From Squalus acanthias (taxonomy: Eukaryota): a DNA stretch of 64,000 nt. Below, one piece after another: positions 3,470-63,125 of the stretch. The translations under genes and the position numbers were made by a program. The DNA lies in the NCBI GenBank assembly GCA_030390025.1, contig CM059432.1, forward strand, positions 50,904,001 through 50,968,000. The letters run 5' to 3'. Within the stretch, counting starts at the first letter, position 1. Each line of letters opens with the position of its first letter. The notes under the pieces were generated by a model. That model was given only the letters and a program-made list of their open reading frames with translations. It searched no databases and was not told where the DNA came from.

Positions 3470-5160
3470 GCTGATTCTATTTACTCAGTATCATCCCTTC
3501 ATAATTTTAATTATCTCCATCAAATCACCCCAGAATCCCCTCTGTTCTAATGAAAACAGCCATTATTTTCCAATCATATTGGTATTTCCTCATACTATGC
3601 AACATCCTAGTGTATCTGCATTGTACCCTCTCTATTGCCTCAACATCTTTCCTATATTGTGCAGCCCAAAACTGCACATAGTACTCCAACTGTGGTCTTA
3701 CTAGGGATATAGATTCACTATTACATTTGATTTTTATATTCAGTATCTCTTGCCATACAACCCAGTGTCCCATTAGTTTTCGTTATGGTCTTATCCACTT
3801 GAGGCATTGCTTTTAATACCTTGTGAACCTAAACTTCCAAATTCTTCAGTTTTTCCACATTACTCAGCTTTCCCCCATTCAAATTATAATTAATTTTTTT
3901 TTTTACCACCTCACATTTACTGATGTTGAATTAAATCTGCCACTTTTTTCTTATCAATAGCCCCTTGCAGCATCCTTTGGTCCTCAAGATTAGTTACTAT
4001 GGGGGAAAAATTCGGTTGGTTTGTGCCTCCCGTTAGCGCCTTAAGAGGGCGCGAATGGGCCGCAAAGCAACTAGCGCGCGGGCGCATCGATGTTTGTGCC
4101 GCTCGCGAAATTGACCAGACATTTTGCGGCGGCGCTAAACACTACCGCCACGATCTCCTGCGCCCGCAGATTGTGACAGTTGAGAGTGCAACGCCCCGGA
4201 CGGGATAGTGAGTGGCGCCCCCTGCCTTACCGCCTGCCGCTAGCAACGACAGGTTGAGGGGAGCGTTTTGCAGTAGGGAAGGGACTGGGGGAGCGCTATT
4301 TAAAGGCGACCGCTTCTTGCCTTTTTTTGTCGGTGACATTTTTGCACCACGCACTCTGAGTGAGAGGGAGAGACTTCTGGAGATATTCAATGCTGTGTTG
4401 AGGAGTTTTGGGTACTGAGCAGCACTTTGCAGGTTCATTTTGATTTGATCTTCCTTGCATCGATTTAGAAGAGACTATGGGGGCTGCACTCTGAGCTCTT
4501 TCCCTGGGCCTTGCCATTGTTCTTTCCAGCAGATTTGATGTACATGTCTCTCCAGGCCGAGATTCAAGGCTGCAATGAGCAAGGTGTGGATGGAGAGCAA
4601 GATCGACCCTTCCCTTTAAGAACTGGCCGGCGCCATTGTGTCTGTGTTCCATTGCTGACTGACATCACATGAGCTTCGCCAGCGCTCTGAGGTAGCGTCT
4701 CGCTCCTCGGCGTTAGCGCCTTAAGAGAGGTGTATAGCGCCTGATTTAGTGCTCCAATCACCTCCAGGGGCGATAGAAGCCAAGTTTGCAGTCGGAGGCG
4801 ATAATTAGCGCCAGGTGCTAAACTTTGCGCCCGGCCAATAATTGCACCCCAAACGGGGCGATACCAAATTTCTCCCCCTATAACTCCTATTTTAGTATCA
4901 TTTGCAAATTTAGACACAATTCCCTCGAGCTCTATATTTAAATCATTGATGTACATAATGAACAGAAGTGGTCCCAGAAGAGAATCCCATGGGGCATTGC
5001 TACCCACTTCCAGCCACTCTGAGAAACTGCCCTTAACTGCAACGCTCTGTTTTTTCCCATCTAACCACTTCTTAATACCATTTGCTACCCTCCCCCTAAT
5101 TCCATAACCCTTAATTTTCTCCCACAGTCTCCTTTGTGGTATTGTGTCAAAGGCTTGCTG
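3470..5160 (-). mobile_element. CR1 LINE fragment interrupted by a Harbinger MITE
   Basis: Motifs AFDTIPQRRL, LLGPLLFIMYINDL, KFANDTK and LVRPQLEYYVQFW. The frame KIGVI|VTNLEDQRMLQ rejoins across 4001-4878. Confidence 0.85.
4001..4878 (-). mobile_element. Non-autonomous Harbinger (MITE), 878 bp
   Basis: Termini GGGGGAAAAATT...AATTTCTCCCCC and TSD TAT (3998-4000/4879-4881). Both ends are homologous to the ends of the full-length elements. Confidence 0.9.
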
Positions 5161-9569: not shown

Positions 9570-10631
9570 GGGGGAGAAATTCAGTATCGCCCCGTTTGGG
9601 GCGCAATTATCGGCCGGGCGCAAAGTTTAGCGCCTGGCGCTAATTATCGCCTCCAACTGCAAACTTGGCTTCTACCACCGCTGGAGGTGATTGGAGTGCT
9701 AAATCAGGCGCTACACACCTCTCTTAAGGTGCTAACGCCGAGGAGCGAGGCGCTACCTCAGAGCGCTGGCGAAGCTCATGTGATGTCAGTTAGCAATGGA
9801 ACACAGACACACTGGCGCCGGCCAGTCTTAAAGGGGAGGGTCGATCTTGCTCTCCATCCACACCCTGCTCATTGCAGCCTTGAATCTCAGCCTGGAGAGA
9901 CCTGTACATCAATTCTGCTGGAAAGAACAATGGAGAGGCCCAGGGAAAGAGCTCAGAGTGCAGCCCCTATAGTCTCTTTTAAATCGATGCAAGGAAGGTC
10001 AAATCAAAATGAACCTGCAAAGTGCTGCTCAGTACCCAAAACTCCTTCACACAGCGTTGAATCTCTCCAGAAGTCTCTCTCTCTCAGAATGCGTTGTGCA
10101 AAAATGTCGCCGACAAAAAAAGGCAGGAAGCGGTCGCCTTTAACATAGAAACATAGAAACTAGGAGCAGAAGTAGGCCATTCGGCCCGTCGAGCCTGCTC
10201 CACCATTCAATACGATCATGGCTGATCATCCAAATCCAGTACCCTGTCCCTGCTTTCTCACACAGAATCCCCATTGAGCCTGCACCGACACATATCCCAC
10301 CCTATCCCCGTAACCCCACGTATTTAATTTAAATAGCGCTCCCCCAGTCCCTTCCCGATTGCAAAACGTTCCCCTCAACCTGTCGTTGCTAGCGGCAGGC
10401 GGAAAGGCAGGGGCCGCCACTCAATATCCGGTCCGGGGCGTTGCACGCTCGACTGACGTCACGATCTGCGGGCGCAGGAGATCGTGGCGGTAGTGTTTAG
10501 CGCCGCCGCAAAATGTCTGGTCAGTTTTGCGAGCGGCGCAAACATCGCCGTGCCCGGGCGCTTGTTGCTTTGCACTCCATTAGCGCCCTTAGGGCGCTAA
10601 TGGGAGGCGCAAAGCAACAAAATTTTCCCCC
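9570..10631 (+). mobile_element. Non-autonomous Harbinger (MITE) with nested SINE fragment
   Basis: Termini GGGGGAGAAATT...AATTTTCCCCC, TSD TAC (9567-9569/10632-10634); inverted close copy of 4001-4878. Confidence 0.9.
10144..10327 (-). mobile_element. 5'-truncated SINE 3' end (CR1-type tail)
   Basis: Near-identical to 47328-47490; (TTCTATGT)n tail; apparent TTTAA duplication at the insertion site. Confidence 0.75.
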
Positions 10632-10835: not shown

Positions 10836-11596
10836 GGGGTAAAAATTGAGTCGCGCCCCATTTGGGGCGCTAACCTCGCCGGGGCGCGACTTTTAGCGCC
10901 CCGAAAAAATTAGCGGCCCCGCGCCGGAACTTCAGTGGTTGCGCCCCAAGAGGGAAGCGGGGCGCAACTGGAAGCAGCCCGCATCCCTCTTGGGGCGCTG
11001 CGAGTGAATATCCTGGCGCTACGTGCCGCAGCGCCACGTGCTGCGGCACGTCGCGCCGCGGTATTGCAGGCCTTCCTCCCCTTCTTAAAGGGGAGGGACC
11101 CTGCGCAGCGCGAACCGGGGCCCAGCTGGGCCCCCAGGGATCGGGAGTGCCGGCAAAAGAGCCCGGCACTCAAGAGAAGTGCCGGGCTCTTGGAGCGCAG
11201 CCGGCACTTCACGGTGGGGGGGCTTCACGGGGGCCGGGGGCAGGTGCTGGCAGGCGGCCAGCAACAAAAATGGCCGCCTGCCACCTCCGCTTTAAATATC
11301 GCCGCCCCGGCCGCACGTACGCCTCCCTGAACCCGTCGGACATAGCGTCTGGCGGTAAATCAGGGGGCGCGACTGAAGATCACGGCCGGGGCGCGAGCGG
11401 GGTGCTGCGCACGGCGATGATGTCATCGCCGGCGGCGCAGCGCCACAGGGCGCTACCGGCTACCGCCGCCGCTAACCTCCCACTAAATTTTTCGGGAGGC
11501 GTGGGCGGCGCTGCGCCCGGGCGTTAGCTGCTTTACGCCCCATTAGCGCCCTCTTAAGGCGCTAACGGGAGGCGCAAGCAGCTGAATTTTTCCCCC
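10836..11596. mobile_element. GC-rich Harbinger-type MITE, 761 bp
   Basis: Termini GGGGTAAAAATT...AATTTTTCCCCC, TSD TAA (10833-10835/11597-11599), subterminal TTAGCGCC/GGCGCTAA motifs, distinct interior. Confidence 0.88.
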
Positions 11597-24007: not shown

Positions 24008-24118
24008 TGCGGAGATGCCGGCGGTGTTGGACTGGGGTGGACAAAAATGAGAAGTCGCACAACACCAGGTTATAGTCAAACTGTTGGACTATAACCTGGT
24101 GTTGTGCGACTTCTCATT
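24008..24118. repeat. Penelope terminal sequence in inverted arrangement (32-bp perfect hairpin)
   Basis: Arms 24046-24077 and 24087-24118; the sequence matches the Penelope tail at ~3387-3435. Confidence 0.8.
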
Positions 24119-24986: not shown

Positions 24987-25879
24987 GGGGTAGAAATTAG
25001 GTCGCGCCCCATTTGGGGCGCAAATATCGTCCGGACGCAAATATTAGCGCCTGGTGCTAATTATCAGCACTGACGGGAAACTTCACTTTTACCGCCCCGG
25101 GAGGTGAGTGGAGCGCTAAAGCAGGCGCTGCACACCTCTCTTAAGGCGCAAAGGCCGAGCAGTGAGGCGCTAACTCGGAGCGCTGGCGAAGCTCATGTAA
25201 TGTCAGTCAGCAATGGAACACACACACAATGGCACGGGCCAGTTCTTAAAGGGGATGGTTAATCTTGCTTTCCATCCACATCCTGTTCATTGCTGCCTTG
25301 AATCTCGGCCTGGAGAGACTTGCACATCAAATGTGCTGGAAAGAACAATGGAAAGTACCAGGCAAAGAGCTCAGAGTGCAGCTCCCACAGTCTCTGCTAA
25401 ATCGATACAAGGAATGGCAAATCAAAATGAACCTGCAAAGTGCTGCTCAGTACCCAAAACTCCTTCACACAACGTTGAATCTCTCCAGAAGTCTCTCCCT
25501 CTCTCTCTCAGAATGCGTAGTTCAAAAATGCCACCAACAATAAAAGACAGGAAGAGGCCCCCTTTAAATAGCGCCCCCCCCAGTCCCACAGCGATTGATA
25601 GCGTTCCAGTCTTCTGGTCGTTGGAAGCGCCAGGCGGTAAGGCAGGGGGCGCCACTCAATTTCCGCTACGGGGTGCCCCAAGGGCGTTGCACCATGGAAT
25701 GACATCACAATCTGCGCGCGCAGGTGGTCGCAGCGGTAAGTTTTAGCGCCGCCGCACAATCTCAAGTTAAGTTCTCGAGCGGCGCAAACATCGCTGCGCC
25801 CGGGCGTTAGCGGCTTTGCGCCCCATTAGTGCCCTCTTAAGGCGCTAATGGGTGGCGCAACCAAGTGAATTTTTACCCC
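24987..25879 (+). mobile_element. Non-autonomous Harbinger (MITE), 893 bp
   Basis: Termini GGGGTAGAAATT...AATTTTTACCCC, TSD GTG (24984-24986/25880-25882); ends closely match copies A and B. Confidence 0.92.
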
Positions 25880-33532: not shown

Positions 33533-34936
33533 GGCCTAGAAATTCGATCGTGTCCGGAAACGAGTGAGCAAGGGTAGGGGCGCTCGCTGCACGCACTTGT
33601 TCAGGTGGTCCCAGGGAGCATGTGAAATTGGTGCTGGGACCTCATTATAATGATTCAGACATGCAGCCAGCATTCCCCACGCTATTCATTGGCTGCGCTG
33701 CTTTCTTTGAGGGGGGGTGGGGGTGGAATCAGGCGTCTCTCATGCCACATAAAGGAGAAGTGGACACTGGATGCAGACAATAGGGAAATTTCCCAGATTG
33801 GAAAAAAATTGCTGGAAGAGGTCCTGAGAGCGTACCCAGATACTTTGATACAGCATTGGAGGCTATGGTGCAGGCGGTGTACAGGGAAAGGGAGATCCTG
33901 TTTCCCCCAGGGGGCGGAAAGCCCTCCAGACAACACCGCCATTGCCATTGGAAAGAGTTTGCAGAGGAGGTCAATGCCAGGAACTTAGATTCCAGAATGT
34001 GGCTGCAATGCCAAAAGAACTTATATGACCTCACCAGAGTTGTCAACATAAGAATACTGCTCTCTTATTCTCTGCTCACATCTCCATCATCCTCAGCCTC
34101 ACTACTCACAACACTCGCCTCCCCTGCTTCCCTTCACTCTCCGACAATCATTGCACCACATTTCACTCCACCTCCTTCTCATACTCACACTCACCAATAT
34201 TGCAACCCTCACTTCCCCACACCTCTCATCTTACATACGATAGACAGACTATTTGACCATGACAGGCACATTCTCTAAACACCTCACAGGACAGTCATTA
34301 ACACACTCCCTTCTTTCTTGCAGGAGAATGTCACGCACAACTTGTAACAGCAGATGACCACCAGAGGAGGCTGAACTCGTCTGCACATTCGCTGCCCTGT
34401 GAAAGATAGCGTGCTAGCCACCACAAGTGGGGCAGGAGTCATGGCAGTGTTGAGTGGCAATGCTGGAGAAGATGTCGTGCAGCCAAAAACAGTGCAGCAT
34501 CAGCAAAAATTCTTCTCAAAAGTCAGAAATCAGTTGTAGAAGTGAGAAAACAGACCAAAAAATATCCAAAAGTTAACCAGCAGCCTAAAAGGACGAACCA
34601 GCAACAAATCTGTATGTAGTGGATGAGGCCTTTAAATAGGGCCCTTGTTGACTGTTAGTGTCATGAGATGCTGAGCGAGTTTACCATGTGACGAGTAAGG
34701 CACTGGTGCAGATCCATTTCACAAAAGGGTCCTACAACAAGCGTAGGATCCTTATTTAAATACTTGAATTATTGTTTTGAATACTTCCAGCACGCCTACA
34801 GAGGAGCCTGATCCAATATATTGGGTGGCGCACTGCCAGCGTCGGAAGGGCGCATGTGTGCCACCCAACATATTGGACGCTTAGGCGCCTGCTTTATGCC
34901 TGTAAAATGAGCATGGCGCCAACAAATTTATAGGCC
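33533..34936 (+). mobile_element. Old Harbinger derivative retaining a Myb/SANT remnant
   Basis: Termini GGCCTAGAAATT...AATTTATAGGCC. The ORF at 33856 (EAMVQAVYREREILFP...WKEFAEEV...WLQCQKNLYDLTRVV) is followed by an exon-2-like acceptor TTCTTGCAG at ~34323. Confidence 0.75.
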
Positions 34937-35734: not shown

Positions 35735-36554
35735 GCCAAAGTGGACTGGGATCAGCTACTTGTAGGAAAATCCACATCAGAGCAGTGGGAGTCATTCAGA
35801 AAGGAGATAGAGAGAGTACAGCGCCAACATGTTCCCGTAAAGGTCAAGGGTGGGACGAACAAGTCCATGGAACCCTGGATGTCAAGGGATATACAAGAAT
35901 GGATTAGGAAAAAAAGGGAGGCTTTTGGCAGATACAAAGGACTAAAAGCCCTAGAGGAGTATAGAAAGTGCAGGGGGGTACTTAAAAAAGAAATTAGGAG
36001 AGCAAAGAGGAGGCATGAAAAAACACTGGCGGGCAAAATAAAGGAAAATCCCAAGGTGTTTTATAAGTATATTAAGGGCAAGAGGATAACCAGGGAAAGA
36101 GTAGGGCCCATTAGGGACCAAAGTGGCAATCTGTGTGTAGAGCCGAAAGATGTAGGTGAGGTTTTAAATGAATATTTTGCATCTGTGTTCACTATGGAGA
36201 AGGACAATGTAGGCATAGAAATCAGGCAGGGGGATTGTGATATACTTGAACAAATTAGTATTGAGAGGGAGGAGGTACTAGCGGTTTTAGCGGGCTTAAA
36301 AGTGGATAAATCCCCAGGCCCAGACGAGATGTATCCCAGGCTGCTGTGTGAGGCAAGGGAGGAGATTGCAGGGGCTCTGACACAAATTTTCAGAACCTCT
36401 CTGGCCACAGGGGAGGTGCCAGAGGACTGGAGGACAGCTAACATAGTATCATTATTCAAGAAGGGTAGTAGGGATAAACCAGGGAATTACAGGCCAGTGA
36501 GCCTAACATCAGTGGTAGGGAAATTATTTGAAAAAATTCTGAGGGAAAGAATTA
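35735..36554 (+). mobile_element. CR1 LINE, 5' part (split by Harbinger copy A)
   Basis: ORF from 35741 (KSPGPDEMYPRLL...NYRPVSLTS); the frame LRERI|SLHLERQG continues at 40706. Confidence 0.95.
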
Positions 36555-37066
36555 GCGGTAAAAATTCACTTGGTTGCGCCTCCCGTTAGCGCCTTAAGAG
36601 GGCGCTAATGGGGCGTTAAGCCGCTAACGCCCGGGCGCAGCGCTGTTTGCGCCGCTCGAGAACTTAACTTGAGATTGCGCGGCAGCGCTAAAACTTACCG
36701 CTGCGACCACCTGCGCGCGCAGATTGTGACGTCATTCCATGGTGCAACGCCCTTGGGGCGCCCCGGAGCGGAAATTGAGTGGCGCCCCCTGCCTTACCGC
36801 CTGGCGCTTCCAACGACCGGAAGACTGGAACGTTATCAATCGGTGTGGGGCTGGGGGGGGCGCTATTTAAAGGGGGCCTCTTCCTGTCTTTTTCTGTGGT
36901 CGACATTTATGCACCACTCGTTCTGAGAGAGAGAGAGAGATTCGGAGAGAGAGAGAGAGAGACTTCTACATTGACTCAACGCTTTGTGAGGTAGTTTGTC
37001 CTAGTTCATCCTAACTTTGTTGCTACTTTAGTTGCTGTACCTCATTACTTTTCTGGCAAAGAGAAT

Positions 37067-38227
37067 ATGGGGGCTGCAATGATTGGGGGCGTCGTCCTGC
37101 TCCAGCTGAATCGGAGGATAGTGAGACGCAGACAGAGAGTGGCAATGATGGCCAGACGGAGGAGGGCCATCAGGCGCATGTACAGGAGAGCTTACCCTCC
37201 CAGGGTATATCGTGAACAGCTCTCCTACATCCATATGTCCGAGGAGCTGTGTTTGCGAAGGCTGTGATTCAGCAAGGAGGTGGTCACTGAGCTCTGCCAC
37301 CTGCTGCAGCCAGATCTGCAGCCTCAGCTGAGGTCCAGGACGTCTCTGTCGGTGGCAGTGAAGGTCACAGTGGCTTTGAACTTCTACGCCACTGGCTCAT
37401 TCCAAGCTGCTGTTGGGGACCTCGCCAATATCTCCCAGTTTGCGGTGCATCGCTGCATCCGGCAGGTCACCAATGCCCTCTTCAGAAGGAGACGAGACTT
37501 CATCTCTTTCCCTATGACCCCAGACAAGCAGCATGACCGTGCTATGGGCTTTGCGAGGGTAGCGGGCTTCCCCATGGTGCAGGGCGCCATTGACTGCACG
37601 CATGTGGCTTTGCGTGCTCCGCGAGAGAATGCAGAGGAATTCAGGAACAGAAAGGGGTTCCATTCCTTGAATGTGCAGTTGGTCTGTGACCACAGACAGG
37701 TGATTCTCGCTGTCAATGCCCACTATCCGGGCAGCTGCCACGATGCTTTCATCCTGCGCCAGACTACTGTGGCAGAACTTTTCGAGGCACCGCATCAGCC
37801 AGTTGGTTGGCTTCTGGGGGACAAGGGGTACGCATTGAGCACCTGGCTGATGACACCGCTCCGTACGCCAAACACCCCTGCTGAGCTGCGGTACCAGGAA
37901 AGCCATCAAGCAACCAGGAACATTATTGAGCGCACAATTGGCGTGCTGAAACAACGGTTCCGCTGTCTGGACCATTCCGGAGGAGCCCTGCAGTACTCGC
38001 CTGAGCAAGTTTCGAACTTCGTAGTCGTGTGCTGCATGTTGCACAACATGGCAATCCTCAGGACCCAGCCAATGCCACCAGGCCTTGTAGCACCACCAGA
38101 GGAGGAGGAGGAAGAGGAGGAACAGGACGAGGACGATGATCATCAGCAGCACCAAGGCAGGAGGGCGGCCCACAATGGTCAAACTGCAAGGGCCGTCCGT
38201 CAACGACTAATAGCAAGCCGCTTCTAG
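37067..38227 (+). pseudogene. Harbinger DDE transposase (HARBI1-like, 386 codons) with one premature stop
   Basis: Motifs GAIDCTH, GSCHDAFI, LLGDKGY, RNIIERTIG, CCMLHN and an acidic tail. TGA at 37265-37267 is CGA in copy B. Confidence 0.93.
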
Positions 38228-38521
38228 GGCCCCTGCCATTGCTACAAACACTAATCAACCCAGCACGCAACCCCTAAGCCGGCCAAGGCACCAATAATTC
38301 CAACCACCAGCCATGTATATTTTGAATACAGAAACTTATTTATTTTACAAACTCTGTGTGTGTCAATTCCTCATGACAAACTCATAGAAATAAACACAAA
38401 AATACAGTCAATAACATAACTGGTTCTCACAACCTGGAGATAATGTCCAAAACACTAAACAAAAGTTGGACCATGAACCTCGGCCTTTAATAAAAAAATG
38501 ACCAGCATTTTGGCACACCTC

Positions 38522-40344
38522 CTACTTTTTGCCCTTCGAGGGTGATCTCCTTCCCTTGCGCACTTCCCCCCTTCTAACCCTACTGCTCCTCTGTAATGGG
38601 ACCTCAGTGGCTGCAGCAAGGCTGGTGGAAGGCTGCTGCTCGTCAGACCCTGACACTGCAGATGCCCCTGAAGGACGGCCTCGACCACTTCTGGGCCTGG
38701 AGGGCCCGGCTGCAGACTGCACCAACTCTGCATGGGCGGCAGCAGTCTGTCCTACAGGCGGTGGCAAGTGCAGTGGAGAAGTGACAGTGTTGGCAGCAGG
38801 AATGCTGTCATCGTGAGAGAGGACAGCAACTCCCTGCTCGCCCGACACACTGGCACTCCCACGGGGCAGCACTTCAGCATCCGGAGCAATTTGCCTGAGA
38901 ACAGATTGCTGGCCTGCTGCGGCGCGGTGACAGCCCCGGGGACATGTGCACGAACCATCGAGGATGGCAGCAGTCAGTGCTCGCGTGGCCTCAATCTGAG
39001 TCTGCATGAGAGCAGTCTCAGATGGGTTCCTGGCAACCAGTGACTGAATTGCAGCACTAAGCTTTAGTGTGGCATTCGCCTGTGCTACAGCGAAGTGCTC
39101 CACACTCCTTGCCAGTGCCTCAATGCATTCGGGCACCCTTCCCACTGCACCCATGAGCTCAGTGTGCATGCCCACCGCCTGGCTGTTCATTTCTGCAATC
39201 AGCCGCTCCTCCTCTGCGTCCATTGCAGTAGGAGTGTCTGGCATACTCTCCCTCTGGGGAGAAGGCTCCCGTTCTTCCCTCCCCCCCCCATGGCGTTGCT
39301 GCAGCCCGCTGGGTCCTGGAGCTTCACCATCATCAGCCCCTTCCCCCCTGCTCCCCTCCGGGGAAGGCGTGTTCCCAGTGTGGCCATGGGCTTCCTCGGG
39401 AGAGGGTGGCACTGATGCTCCGGCTTCCTCTTCCTCCTCAGCTGCAGCATCACTTCCAGTGGCAGCTTCAGGGCCCGTCTCCTCAGCTGGTGAATCACCA
39501 TCTGAAAGCAGGGAGGTACAAGAGTGGCTTTAGCGTGAGGACAGGGTGGCAGTAAGGGAGGAATAAGTGCAGCGAGTTAGCAAGTTGGATTGAAAGTGTC
39601 AAAGGCTGGTATTGTGTGGGACAAGTGGAAGGACAGAGGACAAAAAGGTGATGACCTTACCATTGCTGTCCACAACGGGGTCGGCGTCCCCAGTGGCGAC
39701 GGGACCGATCACCCGGCTTGCCACAATCCTGTGGACGCGCTCCTCCAGATCGCTGAGGGGTTGCAGCTGAAGCCGCCCTCCACCCGTCCGTTGCTGCTGT
39801 CTCCGATTATGAGCCAGCTTAGCCTGCAAGAAAAAGGACAGCATCTGAGTAAATATACAGCCATGGTCTTGCCTGATGTGCCTCCCATAGGTGAATAGCC
39901 CTTACAATATGCAGCCATGGTCTTGCCTGATGTGCCTCCCATAGGTGAATAGCCCTTACTGTATGCAAAGTGTGGAATGTGTGTGTGTGTTTGATGAAAG
40001 GGCCATAGGTGTTGCATGAGTGTTGTGCATTGGGGTTTTAAGACCCTCTGGCCATAGAGTGAGGTTGAGATGGAGGGATGGAGAGGTATTGAGAAAAAGC
40101 CACTCACCCTGACGACCCGAGTGAGGTCGTTGAACTTTTTGCGGCACTGAACATGGGTCCTGGGCACCATGCTCCTGGAGGAGACGCTCTGAGCCACCTC
40201 CCTCCACACTCTTCTGAACTCGCGTGGCAAAGGCCTCCTGCCACTCTCCGGGAACAGCATGCATCGTCTGCGCTCCACTGCGTCAACCAGAGCATCCAAG
40301 GCCCGCTCGGTGAAGCGATGAGCGCGTTCTCTCACCCTCTCCAT
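38522..40344 (-). CDS. Harbinger Myb/SANT-like DNA-binding protein, 3 exons (40344-40108, 39823-39661, 39501-38522), 459 aa
   Basis: SANT domain (RFTERALDALVDAV...WREVA...QCRKKFNDL); canonical GTGAGT/GTAAGG donors and pyrimidine-CAG acceptors; exons sum to 1380 nt in an open frame. Confidence 0.88.
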
Positions 40345-40705
40345 GCTTGGCAGCAAAATGGATTACAGGTCTCTCCAGGCTGAGATTCAAGGCTGCAATG
40401 AGCAGGGTGTGGCTGGGGAGCAAGTGGCCCCCCCCCGCTTTAAGAAGTGTCCGGCGCCAGTGTGTCTGTGTTCCCTCGCTAACTGGCAGCAGCTGTGCTG
40501 CGCTCGTGCGCTGAGGTAGCGCCTCACTCCTAGGCCTTTGCGCCTTAAGAGAGGTGTGCAGCGCCTAATTTAGCGCTCCACTCACCTCCCGGGGCGGTAA
40601 AAGTGAAGTTTCCTGTCAGTGCCGATAATTAGCGCCAGGCGCTAATATTTGCGCTCGGACGATATTTGCGCCCCAAAAGGGGCGCGACCTAATTTCTACC
40701 CCTTA

Positions 40706-42025
40706 GTCTCCACTTGGAGAGGCAAGGATTAATCAAGGATAGTCAGCATGGCTTTGTCAGGGGGAGATCATGTCTAACCAATTTGATTGAATTTTTCGAG
40801 GGGGTGACCAGGTGTGTGGATGAGGGTAGTGCAGTTGATGTAGTCTACATGGACTTCAGTAAGGCGTTTGACAAAGTCCAGCATGGGAGACTGGTCAAGA
40901 AGGTAAGAGCCCATGGGACCCAGGGCAATTTGGCACATTGGATCCAAAATTGGCTTAGTGGCAGGAGGCAGAGGGTGATGGTCGAAGGTTGTTTTTGTGA
41001 CTGGAAGCCTGTGTCCAGTGGTGTACCGCAGGGATCGGTGCTGGGTCCCTTGCTGTTTGTAGTGTACATTAATGATTTGGATATGAATGTAGGAGGTATG
41101 ATCAGTAAGTTCGCAGATGACACGAAAATTGGTGGAGTGGTAGTGAGGAGGGAAGCCTCAGGCTACAGGACGATATAGATGGGTTGGTCAGATGGGCAGA
41201 ACAGTGGCAAATGGAATTTAACCCTGAAAAGGGTGAGGTGATGCATTTTGGGATGACTAACAAAGCAAGGGAATACACAATGAATGGTCGGACCCTAGGA
41301 AGGACAGAGGATCAGAGGGACCTTGGTGTGCATGTACATAGATCCCTGAAGGCAGCAGGACAGGTAGATAAGGTGGTTAAAAAGGCATATGAGATACTTG
41401 CCTTCATTAGCCGAGGCATAGAATATAAGATCAGGGAGGTTATGATGGAGCTGTACAAAACGCTAGTTAGGCCACAGCTGGAATACTGTGTGCAGTTCTG
41501 GTCGCCACACTATAGGAAGGATGTGATTGCATTGGAGAGGGTGCAGAGGAGATTCACCAGGATGTTACCTGGGCTGGAGTGCTTCAGCTATGAGGAGAGA
41601 CTGGACAGGCTGGGGTTGTTTTCCTTGGAGCAGAGAAGGCTGAGGGGGGACCTGATTGAGGTGTACAAAATTATGAGGGGCATAGATAGGGTAGATAGAA
41701 AGGAACTTTTCCCCTTAGTAGAGGGGTCAATAACCAGGGGGCATAGTTTCAAGGTAAGGGGCAGGAGGTTTAGAGGGGATTTGAGGAAAAACTTTTTCAC
41801 CCAGAGGGTGGTTGGAATCTGGAACTCACTGCCTGAAAGGATGGTAGAGGCAGGAACCCTCACAACATTCAAGAAGCATTTAGATGAGCATTTGAAATGC
41901 CATAGCATACAAGGCTATGGACCAAGTGCTGGAAAATGGGATTAGAATAGACAGGGCTTGATGGCCGGCGCGGACAAGATGGGCCGAAGGGCCTCTTTCT
42001 GTGCTGAAAAACTCTATGACTCTAT
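40706..42025 (+). mobile_element. CR1 LINE, 3' part (spacer between the two Harbingers)
   Basis: ORFs 40714..41178 and 41184..41945 (RT with a frameshift near 41145); the (TCTATGAC)n tail resumes at 46315. Confidence 0.95.
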
Positions 42026-42383
42026 GGGGGTAGAAATTAGGTCGCGCCCCATTTGGGGCGCAAATATCGTCCGCGCGCAAATATTAGCGCCTGGCGCTAA
42101 TTATCGGCACTGACAGGAAACTTCACTTTTACCGCCCCGGGAGGTGAGTGGAGCGCTAAATTAGGCGCTGCACACCTCTCTTAAGGCGCAAAGGCCTAGG
42201 AGTGAGGCGCTAACTCAGCGCACGAGCGCAGCGCAGCTGCTGCCAGTTAGCGCGGTAACACAGACACACTGGCGCCGGACACTTCTTAAAGCGGGGGGGG
42301 CCACTTGCTCCCCAGCCACACCCTGCTCATTGCAGCCTTGAATCTCAGCCTGGAGAGACCTGTAATCCATTTTGCTGCCAAGA

Positions 42384-44347
42384 ATGGAGAGGGTGAGAGA
42401 ACGCGCTCATCGCTTCACCGAGCGGGCCTTGGATGCTCTGGTTGACGCAGTGGAGCGCAGACGATGCATGCTGTTCCCAGAGAGTGGCAGGAGGCCTTTG
42501 CCACGCGAGTTCAGAAGAGTGTGGAGGGAGGTGGCTCAGAGCGTCTCCTCCAGGAGCATGGTGCCCAGGACCCATGTCCAGTGCCGCAAAAAGTTCAACG
42601 ACCTCACTCGGGTCGTCAGGGTGAGTGGCTTTTTCTCAATACCTCTCCATCCCTCCATCTCAACCTCACTCTATGGCCAGAGGGTCTTAAAACCCCAATG
42701 CACAACACTCATCCAACACCTATGGCCCTTTCATCAAACACACACACACATTCCACACTTTGCATACAGTAAGGGCTATTCACCTATGGGAGGCACATCA
42801 GGCAAGACCATGGCTGCATATTGTAAGGGCTATTCACCTATGGGAGGCACATCAGGCAAGACCATGGCTGCATATTGTAAGGGCTATTCACCTATGGGAG
42901 GCACATCAGGCAAGACCATGGCTGTATATTGACTCAGATGCTGTCCTTTTTCTTGCAGGCTAAGCTGGCTCATAATCGGAGACAGCAGCAACGGACGGGT
43001 GGAGGGCGGCTTCAGCTGCAACCCCTCAGCGATCTGGAGGAGCGCGTCCACAGGATTGTGGCAAGCCGGGTGATCGGTCCCGTCGCCAGTGGAGACGCCG
43101 ACCCCGTTGTGGACAGCAATGGTAAGGTCATCACCTTTTTGTCCTCTGTCCTTCCACTTGTCCCTCACAATACCAGCCTTTGACACTTTCAATCCAACTT
43201 GCTAACTCGCTGCACTTATTCCTCCCTTACTGCCACCCTGTCCTCACGCTAAAGCCACTCTTGTACCTCCCTGCTTTCAGATGGTGATTCACCAGCTGAG
43301 GAGATGGTCCCTGAAGCTGCCACTGGGAGTGATGCTGCAGCTGAGGAGGAAGAGGAAGCCGGAGCATCAGTGCCACCCTCTCCCGAGGAAGCCCATGGCC
43401 ACACTGGGAACACGCCTTCCCCGGAGGGGAGCAGGGGGGAAGGGGCTGATGATGGTGAAGTTCCAGGACCCAGCGGGCTGCAGCAACGCCATGGGGGGGG
43501 GAGGGAAGAACGGGGGAGCAGGGGGGAAGGGGCTGATGATGGTGAAGTTCCAGGACCCAGCGGGCTGCAGCAACGCCATGGGGGGGGGAGGGAAGAACGG
43601 GAGCCTTCTCCCCAGAGGGAGAGTATGCCAGACACTCCTAATGCAATGGACGCAGAGGAGGAGCGGATGATTGCAGAAATGAACAGCCAGGCGGTGGTCA
43701 TGCACACTGAGCTCATGGGTGCAGTGGGAAGGGTGCCCGAATGCATTGAGGCACTGGCAAGGAGTGTGGAGCACTTCGCTGTAGCACAGGCGGATGCCAC
43801 ACTAAAGCTTACTGCTGCAATTCAGTCACTGGCTGCCAGGAACCCATCTGAGCCTGCTCTCATGCAGACTCAGATTGAGGCCACGCGAGCACTGACTGCT
43901 GCCATCCTCGATGGTTCGTGCACATGTCCCCGGGGCTGTCACCGCGCCGCAGCAGGCCAGCAATCTGTTCTCAGGCAAATTGCTCCGGATGCTGAAGTGC
44001 TGCCCCGTGGGAGTGCCAGTGTGTCGGGCGAGCAGGGAGTTGCTGTCCTCTCTCACGATGACAGCATTCCTGCTGCCAACACTGTCACTTCTCCACTGCA
44101 CTTGCCACCGCCTGTAGGACAGACTGCTGCCGCCCATGCAGAGTTGGTGCAGTCTGCAGCCGGGCCCTCCAGGCCCAGAAGTGGTCGAGGCCGGCCTTCA
44201 GGGGCATCTGCAGTGTCAGGGTCTGACAAGCAGCAGCCTTCCACCAGCCTTGCTGCAGCCACTGAGGTCCCATTACGGAGGAGCAGTAGGGTTAGAAGGG
44301 GGGAAGTGCGCAAGGCAAGGAGATCACCCTCGAAGGGCAAAAAGTAG
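42384..44347 (+). CDS. Harbinger Myb/SANT-like protein, 3 exons (42384-42620, 42959-43121, 43281-44347), 488 aa
   Basis: Same splice sites as copy A; 1467 nt in an open frame, including an in-frame 87-bp duplication. Confidence 0.88.
42769..42930 (+). repeat. 54-bp tandem repeat x3 in Myb intron 1 (x2 in copy A)
   Basis: Unit GTAAGGGCTATTCACCTATGGGAGGCACATCAGGCAAGACCATGGCTGCATATT starts at 42769, 42823 and 42877. Confidence 0.95.
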
Positions 44348-44658
44348 GAGGTGTGCCAAAATGCTGGTCATTTTTTTATTAAAGGCCGAGGTTCATGGCC
44401 CAACTTTTGTTTAGTGTTTTGGACATTATCTCCAGGTTGTGAGAACCAGTTATATTATTGACTGTTTTTTTGTGTTTATTTCTATGAGTTTGTCATGAGG
44501 AATTGACACACACAGAGTTTGTACAATAAATAAGTTTCTGTATTCAAAATATACATGGCTGGTGGTTGGAATTATTGGTGCCTTGGCCGGCTTAGGGGTT
44601 GCGTGCTGGGTTGATTCGTGTTTGTAGCACTGGCAGGGGCCCTAGAAGCGGCTTGCTA

Positions 44659-45801
44659 TTAGTCGTTGACGGACGGCCCTTGCAGTTTGACCATTGTGGG
44701 CCGCCCTCCTGCCTTGGTGCTGCTGCTGATCATCGTCCTCGGCCTGTTCCTCCTCTTCCTCCTCTCCTCTTGTGGTGCTGCAAGGCCTGGTGGCATTGGC
44801 TGCGTCCTGAGGATTGCCATGTTGTGCAACATGCAGCACACCACTACGAATTTGGAAACTTGCTCAGGCGAGTACTGCAGGGCTCCTCCGGAATGGTCCA
44901 GACAGCGGAATCGTTGTTTGAGCACGCCGATTGTGCGCTCAATAATGTTCCTCGTTGCTTGTTGGCTTTCCTGGTACCGCAGCTCAGCAGGGGTGTTTGG
45001 CGCACGGAGCGGTGTCATCAGCCAAGTGCTCAATGCGTACCCCTTGTCCCCCAGAAGCCAACCGACTGGCTGATGCGGTGCCTCGAAAATTTCTGCCACA
45101 GTACTCTGGCGCAGGATGAAAGCATCGTGGCAGCTGCCCGGATAGTGGGCATTGACAGCGAGAATCACCTGTCTGTGGTCACAGACCAACTGCACATTCA
45201 AGGAATGGAACCCCTTTCTGTTCCGGAACTCCTCTGCATTCTCTCGCGGAGCACGCAAAGCCACATGCGTGCAGTCAATGGCGCCCTGCACCATGGGGAA
45301 GCCCGCTACCCTCGCAAAGCCCATAGCACGGTCATGCTGCTTGTCTGGGGTCATAGGGAAGGAGATGAAGTCTCGTCTCCTTGTGAAGAGGGCATTGGTG
45401 ACCTGCCGGATGCAGCGATGCACCGCAAACTGGGAGATATTGGCGAGGTCCCCAACAGCAGCTTGGAATGAGCCAGTGGCGTAGAAGTTCAAGGCCACTG
45501 TGACCTTCACTGCCACCGACAGAGACGTCCTGGACCTCAGCTGAGGCTGCAGATCTGGCTGCAGCAGGTGGCAGAGCTCAGTGACCACCTCCTTGCTAAA
45601 TCGCAGCCTTCGCAAACACAGCTCCTCGGACATGTGGATGTAGGAGAGCTGTTCACGATATACCCTGGGAGGGTAAGCTCTCCTGTACATGCGCCTGATG
45701 GGCCTCCTCCGTCTGGCCATCATTGCCACTCTCTGTCTGCGTCTCACTATCCTCCGATTCAGCTGGAGCAGGACGACGCCCCCAATCATTGCAGCCCCCA
45801 T
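44659..45801 (-). CDS. Harbinger DDE transposase, 380 aa; catalytic core intact, C-terminal tail frameshifted
   Basis: All DDE motifs are in one ORF. A 1-nt deletion in the GAG run near 44765 shifts the tail; the ancestral stop is at 44642. Confidence 0.9.
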   Translation of the reverse strand: MGAAMIGGVVLLQLNRRIVRRRQRVAMMARRRRPIRRMYRRAYPPRVYREQLSYIHMSEELCLRRLRFSKEVVTELCHLLQPDLQPQLRSRTSLSVAVKVTVALNFYATGSFQAAVGDLANISQFAVHRCIRQVTNALFTRRRDFISFPMTPDKQHDRAMGFARVAGFPMVQGAIDCTHVALRAPRENAEEFRNRKGFHSLNVQLVCDHRQVILAVNAHYPGSCHDAFILRQSTVAEIFEAPHQPVGWLLGDKGYALSTWLMTPLRAPNTPAELRYQESQQATRNIIERTIGVLKQRFRCLDHSGGALQYSPEQVSKFVVVCCMLHNMAILRTQPMPPGLAAPQEERRKRRNRPRTMISSSTKAGGRPTMVKLQGPSVND

Positions 45802-46329
45802 ATTCTCTTTGCCAGAAAAGTAATGAGGTACAGCAACGAAAGTAGCAGCAAAGTTAGGATGAACTAGGCAAAACTACCTCACAAAGCGTTGAGTCAATGT
45901 AGAAGTCTCTCTCTCTCTCTCTCCGAATCTCTCTCTCTCTCTCAGAACGAGTGGTGCATAAATGTCGACCACAGAAAAAGACAGGAAGAGGCCCCCTTTA
46001 AATAGCGCCCCCCCCCAGCCCCAGACCGATTGATAACGTTCCAGTCTTCCGGTCGTTGGAAGCGCCAGGCGGTAAGGCAGGGGGCGCCACTCAATTTCCG
46101 CTCCGGGGCGCCCCAAGGGCGTTGCACCACGGACTGACGTCACAATCTGCACGCGCAGGTGGTCGCAGCGGTAAGTTTTAGCGCTGCCGCACAATCTCAA
46201 GTTAAGTTCTCGAGCGGCGCAAACAGCGCTGCGCCCGGGCGTTAGCGCCTTTACGCCCCATTAGCGCCCATTTAAGGCGCTAACGGGAGGCGCAACCAAC
46301 TGAATTTTTACCCCTATGACTCTATCTCT

Positions 46330-48403
46330 CAAAAATATCTCAAAGGTGATACTGGGCTCTAGTTGCAGACCCCTTGGACTGCCGCATGACGTGGAGATGG
46401 AGCAGAGGCAGCAAAGGGACAAGTTGCTTGCAGAGGGAGGAGGAGGAGGAAGAGGAGGAAGCAGAAGAGGAAAAAGCAGAAGAGGAGGAAGCAAAAGAGG
46501 AGGAAGCAGAAGAAGAAGAAGCGGAAGGAAGGAGGCAACCAAGGCAGCCCCTTTCTGGCCAGGATATCTGGGATTGAATCATCCGCCTCCGGTACCAGTG
46601 ACCACAACCCCAATTCCCCTTTCAACGTTTGTCCCACACTTTACCTTCCCTCTGTTACTGACCAGCACAGCATCCTCTTGGCCAAGAGCAAACTTTCCAA
46701 TCCAGCTTTACCCATATAAGCATCAAATATTACATTAAAAAATCAACTAATCAACCTTGTGCATTCCCTTAGTGAGTGTCTTGCATGTGTCTTTGCCTAT
46801 CATAGTGCTTTTACGTAGTGCTACCCCAGTGGCTGCAGCATGGCTGATGCAAGGCTGCTGACTTTCAGTGGGAGAGTCTACAGATGGACTTGGAGGACCA
46901 CCTCGAGGAGCTGATGGCTGGGAATGTGATATCGAGTGATGGTGTTTCTTCTTCTTCTTCTTCTTCTTCTTCTTCACTCTCCTCTCCCTCTTCTTGGTCA
47001 ACCACTCGCTGGGCAGGCTGGATTTCTTGGGGGTCTGAAATGAGAAAGGCACAGGGTAGGGTAGTGGTGATGGGAGGCTGTAAAGCAAGAGGTGCATGCT
47101 TACATCATGTGTAGATTGTAAATCAGAAGAGATTGAGGGGGAAGTGGGATGTTAAAAGTGGATAACATATGAGGATACCAGCATCTTGTATTCTTTCAGC
47201 CCCGCCTCTGGCCAAGGTCTCAACCATACCCCTGCCAAGAATGGCCAGCACCATCTCCTCCATGGGGGTGAGGTGAAGCTAGGAATGTGAGGTGTTCCTC
47301 ATGTTTGGTAGAGATTGTTGGTAGAAACATAGAAACATAGAATCTAGGAGCAGGAGTAGGCCATTCGGCCCGTCGAGCCTGCTCCACCATTCAATACGAT
47401 CATGGCTGATCATCCAAATCCAGTACCCTGTCCCTGCTTTAATCCCCACAGTACACATATCCCACCCTACCCCCGTAACCCCACGTATTTAATTCCCCCT
47501 AACATATCCCATCCTATCCCCATAACCCCACATATTTAATCCCCCCCTAACACTAAGGGTCAATTTATCATAGCCAAATCAACCTAACCCGCACATTTTT
47601 GGACTGTGGGAGGAAACCGGAGCACCCGGAGGAAACCCACGCAGACACGGGGAGAATGTGCAAACTCCACACAGACAGTCACCCGAGGTCAGATTCGAAC
47701 CCGGGTCTCTGGCGCTGTGAGGCACCAGTGCTAACCACTATGCCACCGTGCTGCCCGATGGGTGATGGCGGTGGGGGGGGGGGGGGAGGGGTGGCGGTGG
47801 TGGTGTCATGCATTGAGCAGTGTGTGAGGCTAGTGGTGCAGTTGGTAGGTGATGGCTTTTGAAGCTGCATTCACTGATCTGACCACTCGTCTGAGGTCAT
47901 GGCACTGGAGTCACATCCTGGGTGTGACACTGCTGGCTGTGACCACCTCGGCGATCTGGTCCCACATCCTTCTTTCTGGAGGACCTCCTGGCCCCCTGTG
48001 GGTAGAGGACTTCTCTTCCAGTGTTGACCCCCTGCACGAAGCTCGAGTGCTGCGTCCGAGATCCTGCATGTCCTTTCCCTGGCCTATTGAGCCATTTGGG
48101 TTCATGCTGAAGCACTTTTACCACTTTTCATCAGCAGAAGGAAGCTCACCTTTAGGAGGTGCAGACTGCCTTTAAGAGAAGCAGGCTAGCTTTAAGTTTC
48201 GCTCGAACAACGCGAAGTTCGGCCCGCTTCTGAACACACACACAGCCTATAAGCAGCGCGTTCAGCACTAGGCTGTGTACTGCAATCGTTATAATTAGCA
48301 GGCAGCAGGAAGTTGATGTGCTGCCTGGGCTCTTTGAATGGGCACGGGATATCTCGCATTGTGGTGCCCACACCTGTTTATCGCGTTATCCAATTTCTAG
48401 GCC
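46330..48403. mobile_element. Degenerate Harbinger of another family (transposase tail on +, Myb remnant on -)
   Basis: Poly-Glu tail then RQPRQPLSGQDI on +. On -, QQPCISHAAATGVALRKS and MWDQIAEVVTASSVTPR. Right terminus AATTTCTAGGCC. Confidence 0.7.
47322..47756 (-). mobile_element. tRNA-derived V-domain SINE (HE1-like) with CR1-type tail
   Basis: A box TGGCATAGTGG, B box GGTTCGAATC, V-domain GTGGAGTTTGCACATTCTCCCCGTGTCTGCGTGGGTTTCCTCC; the 3' end matches the CR1 3' UTR at 20820-20940. Confidence 0.85.
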
Positions 48404-51446: not shown

Positions 51447-52460
51447 GTGACTAATGCTTCCAATTTCCACCCTTCCCTCACCTTCACATGGTCCATCTCC
51501 GACTCTTCCCTTCCCTTCCTCGACTTCTCCATCTCCATCTCTGGGGATAGGTTATTGACTAACATTCACTACAAGCCCACTGACTCCCACAGCTACCTGG
51601 ACTACACTTCCTCCCACCCCGCCTCCTGTAAGGACTCTATTCCATTCTCCCAGTTTCTCCGTCTCCGCCGCATCTGCTCTGATGATGCCACCTTCCATAC
51701 CAGTGCTTCCGACATGTCTTCCTTTTTCCTCAACCGAGGATTCCCCTCTACTGTGGTCGACACGGCCCTCGACCGTGTCCGTTCTATCTCCCGCACTTTT
51801 GCCCTCACCCCTGCCCCTCCCTCCCGGAACCACGATAGAGTTCCCCTTGTCCTCACCTTTCACCCCACCAGCCTCCACATTCAACGGATCATCCTCCGCC
51901 ATTTCCGCCACCTCCAGCGTGATCCCACCACCAAACACATCTTCCCCTCACCTCCCCTTTCAGCATTCCGCAGGGACCGCTCCCTCCGCGACACCCTAGT
52001 CCACTCCTCTACCACCCCCTGCACCCCTTCCCCTTCGCCCGGCACCTTCCCGTGCACGCGCAGGAGATGCTACACATGCCCTTACACCTCCCCTCTTCCC
52101 ACTGTCCAGGGCCCCAAACACCCCTTCCAGGTGAAACAGCGATTTACTTGTACTTCCTGCAATTTAGTATACTGTATTCGCTGCTCACGATGTGGTCTCC
52201 TCTACATTGGGGAGACCAAACGCAGATTGGGTGACCGCTTTGCGGAACACCTCCGTTCAGTCCGTAATGGGGACCCCGAGCTCCCGGTGGCCTGTCACTT
52301 TAATTCACCGCTTCACTCCCACTCTGACCTCACCGTCCTCGGCCTATTACACTGTTCCACGGAGGCGCAGCGTAAGCTCGAGGAACAGCACCTCATCTTT
52401 CGTTTAGGCACGCTACAGCCCTCTGGACTCAATATCGAGTTCAACAATTTTAGATCATAA
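51447..52460 (+). CDS. Penelope-like RT C-terminus/thumb plus GIY-YIG endonuclease (5'-truncated)
   Basis: FHPSLTFT...LPFLD...YKPTDSHSYL...SQFLRLRRICS...LVYCIRC..CGLLYIGET...RFAEH...GLN. Confidence 0.92.
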   Translation: MTNASNFHPSLTFTWSISDSSLPFLDFSISISGDRLLTNIHYKPTDSHSYLDYTSSHPASCKDSIPFSQFLRLRRICSDDATFHTSASDMSSFFLNRGFPSTVVDTALDRVRSISRTFALTPAPPSRNHDRVPLVLTFHPTSLHIQRIILRHFRHLQRDPTTKHIFPSPPLSAFRRDRSLRDTLVHSSTTPCTPSPSPGTFPCTRRRCYTCPYTSPLPTVQGPKHPFQVKQRFTCTSCNLVYCIRCSRCGLLYIGETKRRLGDRFAEHLRSVRNGDPELPVACHFNSPLHSHSDLTVLGLLHCSTEAQRKLEEQHLIFRLGTLQPSGLNIEFNNFRS

Positions 52461-56590: not shown

Positions 56591-56634
56591 GCTTTCCTTT
56601 GTCTCCCTGCTCAGGTGCCCAACCCCCTGCCACT

Positions 56635-57250
56635 TTAGTTTAAACCCTTCCCAACAGCACTAGCAAACACTTCCCCTAGGACAGCGGTCCCGGCCCTGCC
56701 CAGGTGCAGACCGTCCGGTTTGTACTGGTCCCACCTCCCCCAGAACCGGTTCCAATGTCCCAGGAATTTGAATCCCTCCCCCTTGCACCATTCCTCTAGC
56801 CACGTATTCATTTGAAATATCCTCCTATTTCTACTCTGACTAGCACGTGGCACTGATAGCAATCCTGAGATTACTACCTTTGAGGTCCTATTTTTTAATT
56901 TACCTCCTAACTCCCTATATTCTGCTTTTAGGACCTCATTCCCTTTTTTACCTATACCGTTGGTGCCTATGTGCACCACGGCAGCTGGCTGTTCGCCCTC
57001 CCCCTCCAAAATGTTCTGTAGCCGCTCCGAGACGTCCTTGACCCTTGCACCAGGGAGGCAGCACATCATCCTGGAGTCTCGGTTGCGGCCGCAGAAACGC
57101 CTATCTATTCCCCTTACAATTGAGTCCCCTATCGCTATAGCTCTTCCACTCTTTTTCCTCCCAGCCTGTGCAGCAGAGCCACCCATGGTGCCAGGAAGTT
57201 GGCTGCTGCTGCCTTCCCCTGATAAGTCATCCCCCACAACAGTATCTAAA
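56635..57250 (-). CDS. CR1 ORF1 C-terminal SGNH/GDSL esterase domain (5'-truncated)
   Basis: IGDSIVRG, LPGA, HIGTN and DGLH blocks. Confidence 0.88.
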
Positions 57251-62939: not shown

Positions 62940-63125
62940 TATCATGCAAGCCAATGCTCGATAACCTGGAAGCATCCATGATGCATTCATTTTGCGCCAA
63001 TCCACTGTGCCTGGATTTTTGAAGGTACAGAAAGACAGGATGGATGGCTGCTGGCTACTTAAGGAAGACCTTCTTGGTCTGTAGATCCTGGTGAGTGGAT
63101 ATGAGCGAATAGGGAAGAGATTCAT
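62940..63125. pseudogene. Harbinger transposase remnants joined in opposite orientation
   Basis: On +, IMQANAR*PGSIHDAFILRQSTV...GWLL; on -, RSYPLTRIYRPR (N-terminal-like). Confidence 0.6.

Follow-up and report, generated by a model that had tools for sequence, protein, structure and literature searches.

Two Harbinger insertions in one CR1 LINE of Squalus acanthias, probably decayed independently, represent an abundant chondrichthyan family

Two inverted neighbouring copies, A and B, were found in a window of 64,000 nucleotides (the whole stretch of Squalus acanthias DNA analyzed here; Table 1). They are separate complete PIF/Harbinger insertions in one CR1 LINE, each with its own target-site duplication, and they belong to a young, very abundant chondrichthyan family. 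With a probability of about 0.8, both are members of this family that have decayed independently of each other. An earlier note on this DNA had taken them for a pair from which a working element could be restored. The Harbinger identity that it proposed (a PF13359 transposase, terminal inverted repeats, and 3-bp duplications), the 386-codon ancestral frame, and both lesions are confirmed, the last in the assembly, but there is no support for this pair being special or needed, since it consists of separate insertions, with duplications of their own, from a family of very many copies.

Table 1. Positions of the two Harbinger copies, their genes, the host LINE, and related elements in the window
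Feature	Positions	Strand	Details and basis
Related MITE	4001..4878		TAT duplication; ends 77-82% like A/B
Related MITE	9570..10631		TAC duplication; ends 77-83% like A/B
Related MITE	10836..11596		TAA duplication; short ends 80-93% like A/B
Non-coding MITE	24987..25879		GTG duplication; ends closest to A/B (91-93% over 400 bp; other end 85% over 355 bp)
Host CR1 LINE ORF2, 5' part, cut by A	35867..36554	+	Similarity to the other CR1 copies of the window; start is that of the ORF, the LINE may extend further left
Left target-site duplication TTA of A	36552..36554	+	Right copy 40703-40705; flank comparison
Harbinger copy A, complete	36555..40702	+	4148 bp; both terminal inverted repeats; ends and TTA/TTA duplication
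Left terminal inverted repeat of A	36555..36568	+	G-to-C at second base (36556); comparison with other ends
Transposase gene of A	37067..38227	+	386 codons; nonsense codon 37265-37267; acidic linker and terminal helix kept
Myb/SANT-like gene of A	38522..40344	-	Exons 40344-40108, 39823-39661, 39501-38522; open, 459 aa
Same CR1 LINE, 3' part	40703..42025	+	Ends in 8-bp repeat tail; forms the 1.3-kb A-B spacer
Harbinger copy B, complete	42027..46314	-	4288 bp; inverted relative to A; within the CR1 tail
Myb/SANT-like gene of B	42384..44347	+	Exons 42384-42620, 42959-43121, 43281-44347; open, 488 aa
Transposase gene of B	44659..45801	-	380 aa; catalytic core intact; acidic linker and terminal helix lost

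The CR1 reading frame resumes across copy A, and contigs from three of four runs fuse its left and right flanks directly (break at 36555), confirming the TTA duplication. Copy B lies between TAT at 42023-42025 and TAT at 46315-46317, with one extra G at 42026 or, alternatively, with a 4-bp duplication; it is the exception among the six elements of the window, the other five having clean 3-bp duplications. A, B, and the four MITEs all carry G-rich terminal inverted repeats, and all but one of the 12 ends found in the window start with GGGG, the exception being the left end of A (GCGG). The target preference reaches past the 3-bp duplication: around the six elements the flank motif A-N-N-Y / R-N-N-T is matched at 20 of 24 positions, against 9.2 expected, and none of 200,000 simulations scored as high. 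Over 4146 aligned bases, A and B are 98.1% identical in pairwise alignment. A fold-back or palindromic duplication of one element was considered and rejected, as both copies are complete at either end and are flanked by duplications of their own, and what separates them is the remainder of the LINE.

The size of the family is apparent from two DNA runs, in which 23,771 and 35,691 contigs align over 3.4 kb; all runs consist of contigs, so that depth does not translate into copy number. Twenty of the 24 listed runs (12 studies, eight organism codes) contain the stretch. The chondrichthyan affinity suggested earlier is borne out by the protein search, in which the top 58 of 120 listed matches are shark or ray proteins, the best of them with 70% identity. 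These nearest relatives, chondrichthyan proteins named "putative nuclease HARBI1" (63-70% identity at best), have the acidic linker and terminal helix of the A/B family, but many lack a catalytic residue (E288 is found in 32 of 60 alignment rows). Some look domesticated, whereas A and B sit in multi-copy elements and, with their ends, duplications, and very many copies, do not resemble a domesticated single-copy gene of the HARBI1/NAIF1 type. No description of the family was found in the literature searched, which consisted largely of the main texts of open-access papers.

Both transposases score above the cut-off for DDE_Tnp_4 (PF13359; E 5.7e-39 in A, on the part past the stop, and 5.1e-38 in B), and each copy also has a Myb/SANT-like gene with a PF13873 domain (E 7e-9 and 9e-9), in agreement with the two-component anatomy already recognized. 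Neither copy has both genes uninterrupted (a stop at codon 67 in A, a frameshift near codon 346 in B). In the assembly, the only place where the lesions are seen, A has a single internal stop, TGA at 37265, where B has CGA, and the frame of B matches that of A until about codon 345, followed by a one-base deletion in a GAG repeat (about 44765, opposite 38104 of A, the exact base being ambiguous); 37265 is not among the 40 of 193 contig-variant rows listed, and 38085-38156 was skipped as a repeat. The claim that A differs from an intact element only by this change holds for the gene, which has no other stop and an intact C-terminus, but the G-to-C change at the left end (36556) is a possible cis lesion. 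In B, the switch from an acidic to a basic tail is real (past residue 326 the net charge amounts to -6 in A, compared with +8 in B), but the lesion is not a mere charge flip: the frameshift also costs B the final 40 residues, among them a conserved helix.

That the two lesions differ is no surprise. The chance of two independent null lesions sharing one codon is about 1 in 386, and therefore lesions at independent sites are expected to differ between A and B; their complementarity is the default outcome of independent decay. At one lesion per copy, the Poisson chance of an unbroken copy is 37% (95% range 3-89%), and intact copies of the family likely exist elsewhere, although none was seen among the contigs, which are short, or the listed protein matches.

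The helix lost from B is well conserved: among 60 homologues, F386 is shared by 41, I382 by 35, L381 by 32, and R378 by 32 (10-13 rows being gapped there), and the tail is net acidic in 49 of 52. In the model of A the terminal helix has pLDDT 96-97, whereas the new tail of B (pLDDT 44-57) has no such helix. In a predicted complex, the helix given as a separate chain docks on the B core at residues 169, 256-262, and 272-279, with a score of 0.82 against 0.19 for the best control, at least 96% of contacts agreeing between runs, and partner pLDDT of at least 68. This mark was calibrated on microbial pairs rather than on peptides (51 of 78 solved pairs and 2 of 108 mismatched ones attain it), and segments that belong to a single chain would be expected to pass. 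The terminal helix is thus predicted to brace the catalytic core, docking beside the catalytic residues. The B transposase is probably impaired, because the frameshift deletes a conserved helix that the models pack against this core, and the suggestion that B may still be active is weakened. In the accessible text of PMC2836001, a C-terminal export signal of rice Ping lowers activity, and so tail loss is not always harmful. A C-terminal deletion test of a Harbinger transposase was not found in the literature searched (largely open-access papers). A sequence search of solved structures gave no match to the transposase up to E 1, and Foldseek gave none at E 0.001 or better. A wide structure search does match other DDE transposases (best piggyBac, Z 9.4, rmsd 5.5, 235 residues aligned), over residues 60-341 only, with the terminal helix outside the matched part.

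It is unlikely that the deletion in B is an assembly error, which would make B a fully intact autonomous element with an open transposase gene, an open Myb-like gene, and both ends. Indel errors are common in repeats, and the deletion, known from the assembly and being the sole null lesion of B, sits in a GAG repeat. However, natural indels, too, arise most often by slippage in repeats of this kind, and other one-base indels are present in the family contigs. A high rate of indel errors is also made less likely by the several long open LINE frames of the window, which is free of N.

It is likewise improbable that the pair works or repairs itself, either by the tail-shifted enzyme of B acting with the Myb-like protein or by conversion between the arms restoring a full-length gene. 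B retains D176, D226, D252, and E288 as well as its N-terminus, and its core still folds with high confidence in the model; D176, D252, and E288 we take to be the catalytic triad of these transposases. The N-terminus is described as the Myb-binding part of the transposase in the available portions of PMC9392472 and PMC7282668. B nevertheless lacks the conserved docking helix. As to conversion, the arms share 98% identity and lie within 1.3 kb of each other, and positions 39502-40344, which look homogenised, are less diverged than the rest (7/843 against 70/3303, p 0.01, for a region picked post hoc), which could be due to conversion between the arms. The transposase, for which conversion had been proposed, gives no sign of it: no class of sites differs more between the arms than its silent ones (15/246 against 3/443 intron sites), so that no recent conversion is apparent there. 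Besides, so abundant a family needs no repair from one pair. A restart of A at M150 was rejected; the resulting 237-aa piece would lack the N-terminal part, to which Myb binding has been attributed. That this piece supplies the helix to B in trans is a far-fetched speculation.

Beyond the two lesions, codons 1-345 of the transposases differ by nine further missense and 15 silent changes; taken as 15 silent and 10 replacement differences, this gives pN/pS 0.21 (one-sided p 1.2e-4) for one pair with 25 differences. Similarly, six of the eight transposase variants among the 40 of 193 contig-variant rows listed are silent. Since the A-B differences are mostly silent, working source lineages existed after the split of A and B. 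The two copies agree against the contig majority at 11 of 19 rows (picked by us from the same 40 of 193), and such shared minority letters indicate a closer relationship than between copies taken at random; a local hop from a neighbour of both is conceivable.

Once the predicted introns are removed, both Myb-like genes are intact; that of B has 87 bp duplicated in frame and an additional 54-bp unit in intron 1. The joint of the predicted intron 2 (39501-39661) occurs in runs X14 and X19, both probably RNA, and the helper gene appears to be spliced; the assignment of X14, X18, X19, and X20 to RNA is a guess, as no listed run with the stretch is recorded as RNA. Coverage of the transposase gene in X14 and X19 was not taken as a sign of expression, since this gene is intronless and the Myb intron, too, has coverage in these runs. 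An inverted pair acting as a silencer, with read-through giving hairpin RNA of 4 kb and small RNAs that target the family, is most improbable, since its geometry (4.1-kb arms of 98% identity, a 1.3-kb spacer, inward transposase promoters) is all that favours it, whereas poly(A) signals lie downstream of the transposase gene (38389, 38489) and inverted neighbours are expected occasionally in an abundant family.

Under independent decay, each copy would have inserted at a preferred target motif of the CR1 LINE, A in ORF2 and B in the 3' repeat tail. A transition at a CpG may then have created the stop in A, and a one-base slip in the GAG repeat the frameshift in B; we infer the causes and order of these lesions, as well as the loss of activity in B. 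The product of A would be a 66-residue stub and that of B an enzyme without the helix bracing its core, both probably dead or impaired, with the Myb-like genes of both copies still open. Any mobility of A, B, or the MITEs would come in trans, with transposase from intact copies elsewhere.

Several known systems have a similar organization. As cited in PMC2836001 and PMC9392472, zebrafish Harbinger3_DR with Harbinger3N_DR (Sinzelle et al. 2008) also has a DDE transposase and a separate Myb-like gene, terminal inverted repeats, a 3-bp duplication, an extended target preference, and non-autonomous MITE partners; it was rebuilt from a consensus and moved in cells, whereas A and B are known from sequence and are compared with it by description. 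Rice Ping/Pong with mPing likewise combines two proteins, a 3-bp duplication, an extended motif, and MITEs mobilized in trans, but is a plant system with mostly TAA/TTA duplications, compared with TAT, TAC, TAA, GTG, and TTA here (accessible text of PMC2836001). Both Harbinger3_DR and Ping/Pong need the two proteins for transposition, as stated in the available sections of PMC2836001 and PMC9392472. Harbinger-Snek of sea kraits is another young Harbinger of high copy number in a vertebrate; it has two genes and short non-autonomous derivatives and, as a further likeness, RNA over its coding regions. According to the available text of PMC8437027, it has 269 intact copies in one species and one in another, so that intact vertebrate Harbingers are already known; here intact copies are deduced. 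Its horizontal transfer was shown, whereas the nearest proteins among the matches listed here are all chondrichthyan.

The A/B pair itself is of little weight, but the family answers a need expressed in the literature: no Harbingers were detected in the elephant shark, and the authors urged the study of other cartilaginous fishes (PMC9179366, accessible part), while two shark genome papers name Harbingers merely as a repeat class in their accessible parts (PMC8455134, PMC12498223). Being young, spliced, and abundant, with an excess of silent differences, the family would be a place to study the upkeep of a DNA transposon enzyme in a slowly evolving genome. Its transposases are without a sequence match among solved structures, and the terminal helix predicted for them is a structural feature open to testing. 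We tentatively consider, as a possibility that is open to doubt, that this is a still-active two-gene Harbinger of several cartilaginous fishes with intact copies, its transposase being kept under purifying selection among the copies of one genome through segment shuffling between lineages or re-entry from related species; for vertebrate DNA transposons a neutral pattern has been reported (PMC7070016). If so, a vertebrate Harbinger could be assayed in its native form, with no need to reconstruct it, and B would offer a natural experiment on a terminal helix bracing the active site.

The two inverted PIF/Harbinger copies, A and B, are best read as products of ordinary independent decay (probability about 0.8). 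Every testable PIF/Harbinger feature is found in them, and both fail as autonomous copies. Their Harbinger identity and two-gene make-up, proposed in the earlier note, are confirmed by Pfam: both transposases match DDE_Tnp_4, and both neighbouring genes, open over 459 and 488 aa in A and B, respectively, once two GT-AG introns are taken out, match Myb_DNA-bind_5. In A, the two genes converge across 38228-38521. Forward-strand poly(A) signals lie at 38389 and 38489 and a reverse-strand one at 38339, so that the 3' ends of the genes would overlap.

Both copies are complete elements, 98.1% identical, with 77 substitutions over 4146 aligned bases. The substitutions are rich in transversions (47 of 77), and just 11 of the 30 transitions lie at CpG; the observed/expected CpG ratio is 0.56 in the two elements, against 0.81-0.85 for two MITEs and 0.20-0.33 for pieces of CR1 LINEs close by. 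TTA flanks A at either end, and the CR1 reverse-transcriptase frame, split by A, resumes beyond it. The left flank of A is joined directly to the right flank in contigs of three public sequencing runs (X3, X14, X19), representing the unoccupied site as it exists in other copies of CR1 or else an allele without A. The same CR1 also took up B, in its 8-bp repeat tail, where TAT stands on either side along with one extra G; the junction (42023-42030) can also be read as a 4-bp duplication, though the flank motif (A-N-N-Y / R-N-N-T around the target duplication) favours TAT. Four MITEs with related ends have duplications TAT, TAC, TAA, and GTG, and the motif fits 20 of the 24 flank positions around the six elements, where 9.2 would be expected. 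The left terminal repeat of A has its second base changed, unlike the other 11 ends found. Given complete elements, each with its own duplication, and the flank motif, two separate insertions struck two good targets within one CR1 LINE. A single palindrome composed of the two arms was ruled out by the same completeness and separate duplications.

Features of the window
Feature	Position	Strand	Description
Element A	36555-40702	+	complete Harbinger
Transposase frame of A	37067-38227	+	386 codons, one internal stop
Element B	42027-46314	-	complete Harbinger
Transposase frame of B	45801-44659	-	380 aa, one base lost in GAG repeat
MITEs	4001-4878, 9570-10631, 10836-11596, 24987-25879		ends related to those of A and B; 24987-25879 is non-coding
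Older Harbinger remnants	33817-34047, 47878-47997, 59342-59566, 62704-63009		three Myb-like (41-52% identity), one transposase piece (30%)
CR1/L2-type LINE	53696-57186	-	922-aa open endonuclease and reverse-transcriptase frame; GDSL esterase frame upstream
248-aa frame	51714-52460	+	weak hit to GIY-YIG, narrowly below cut-off (E 2.7e-4)
Short self-complementary elements	12724-12874, 24046-24118		151 bp, 86%; 73 bp, 96%

Among the other repeats, the CR1/L2-type LINE is a young-looking copy, and the 248-aa frame probably represents the terminal part of a Penelope-like element, which it resembles. The 151-bp self-complementary element opens with a G-rich end and may be a further MITE.

At codon 67 (37265) the transposase of A reads TGA against CGA in B, and that of B has lost one base near 44765; both lesions, named in the earlier note, are as read in the assembly, and it is unlikely that the deletion is an assembly error and B intact. 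The earlier note had regarded the lesions as complementary. Two independent null lesions would fall in the same codon with a chance of about 1 in 386 and the family is very abundant, so the complementarity carries little meaning. Contigs matching a 3.4-kb stretch number 23,771 and 35,691 in two DNA runs (read to about 55% and 95%, respectively; these are not copy numbers, and one run may be the assembly source), and the stretch is present in 20 of the 24 runs listed, covering 12 studies and eight organism codes. About half of the element's sampled words also turn up in runs under seven other organism codes, which implies near-identical copies in several species, by vertical descent or by transfer. 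If each copy carries one lesion, a transposase of this age class has a Poisson chance of 37% (wide range, 3-89%) of being unbroken; in so abundant a family, intact copies are thus expected elsewhere.

That A and B form an active or self-repairing pair is quite improbable. B does retain D176, D226, D252, E288, and the N-terminus, reported as the Myb-protein binding part (PMC9392472, PMC7282668). The deletion does turn the acidic tail basic, as claimed, but the frameshift also costs 40 residues, reaching beyond the acidic run. Among 60 homologues, the terminal residues are conserved (41 rows keep F386, 35 keep I382, and 32 each keep L381 and R378; 10-13 rows have a gap at these positions). Of 52 tails, 49 are net acidic, and 31 of the same 52 fit a loose terminal pattern. 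AlphaFold2 predicts a helix at residues 365-385 of A with a pLDDT of 96-97, preceded by a linker scoring 54-59, whereas in the model of B the new tail falls to 44-57 and the core stays confident. Supplied as a separate 33-residue chain, the tail of A is predicted to dock on the B core at 169, 256-262, and 272-279, adjoining D252 and on the E288-bearing helix. The complex score of 0.82 (the highest among three controls was 0.19; contacts agreed by at least 96%, and partner pLDDT was no lower than 68) passes a mark that 51 of 78 solved microbial pairs and 2 of 108 mismatched ones attain, a calibration on such pairs and not on peptides, while tail and core are parts of one chain. No solved relative of the transposase was found by sequence, which makes a memorised like complex less likely. 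Since the lost residues include this conserved, predicted core-docking helix, the B transposase is probably impaired, which weakens the suggestion that B may still be active. Against impairment, Ping activity rises on removal of a C-terminal export signal, according to PMC2836001.

The earlier note also proposed gene conversion between the arms restoring a 386-aa enzyme. Over transposase codons 1-345, 15 silent changes and 10 replacements, counting the stop among the latter, separate A from B (pN/pS 0.21 by simple site counting, one-sided p 1.2e-4). Silent divergence is 15/246 sites there versus 3/443 in introns (p 4e-5), a disparity that, on these sequences, a single clock cannot accommodate and that argues against recent conversion across the transposase. 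Conversion may explain the lower divergence of 39502-40344 (7/843 versus 70/3303 elsewhere; p 0.01, window picked post hoc). Given the silent excess, A and B would be mosaics of lineages whose transposases stayed functional past their split, and the null lesions late, private additions. That the inverted pair acts as a hairpin silencer is very unlikely.

Compared between the two copies, the Myb gene as a whole looks neutral (14 replacement against 5 silent changes, pN/pS 0.94), and in exons 1-2 three of four changes are silent. Among the 40 of 193 variant rows listed, 6 of 8 transposase variants in contigs are silent and 4 of 24 in Myb exon 3. At 11 of 19 rows picked from those 40, A and B agree against the majority contig depth, and at 8 the family carries B's letter; this puts the two copies in one sub-lineage. 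Among the joints listed, one (39501-39661) leaves out exactly the predicted 159-bp intron 2, with CT..AC ends and short sides of 18 and 28 letters; a single contig carries it in X14 and likewise in X19, at depths of 264 and 622, and none does in X1 or X3. X14 and X19 differ in study and in organism code, and that they are RNA is a guess. The joint points to transcription and splicing of the Myb gene at the level of the family and not of A or B themselves.

The chondrichthyan affinity is borne out: 353 proteins match at E <=1e-30, and sharks and rays supply the top 58 of the 120 listed. No close protein match was found in the searched collection, the best among the matches listed being 70% identical. 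Many open HARBI1-like frames of sharks and rays have K, R, or Q for E288, a residue kept in 32 of 60 rows, and some such proteins turn up in more than one species, suggesting several domesticated genes that are catalytically inactive. Harbingers were reported as undetected in elephant shark, with other cartilaginous fishes left open (PMC9179366); for whale shark and grey reef shark they are mentioned as a repeat class (PMC8455134, PMC12498223). Intact vertebrate Harbingers are already known: one sea krait has 269 of them (PMC8437027). No description of this family was found in the article texts searched.

As vertebrate DNA transposons are reported to be neutral within genomes, with purifying selection across horizontal transfer (PMC7070016), the silent excess, drawn from one pair, is the least ordinary result. 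The lead is the family: tentatively, it may be active now, with purifying selection on the transposase among its copies.
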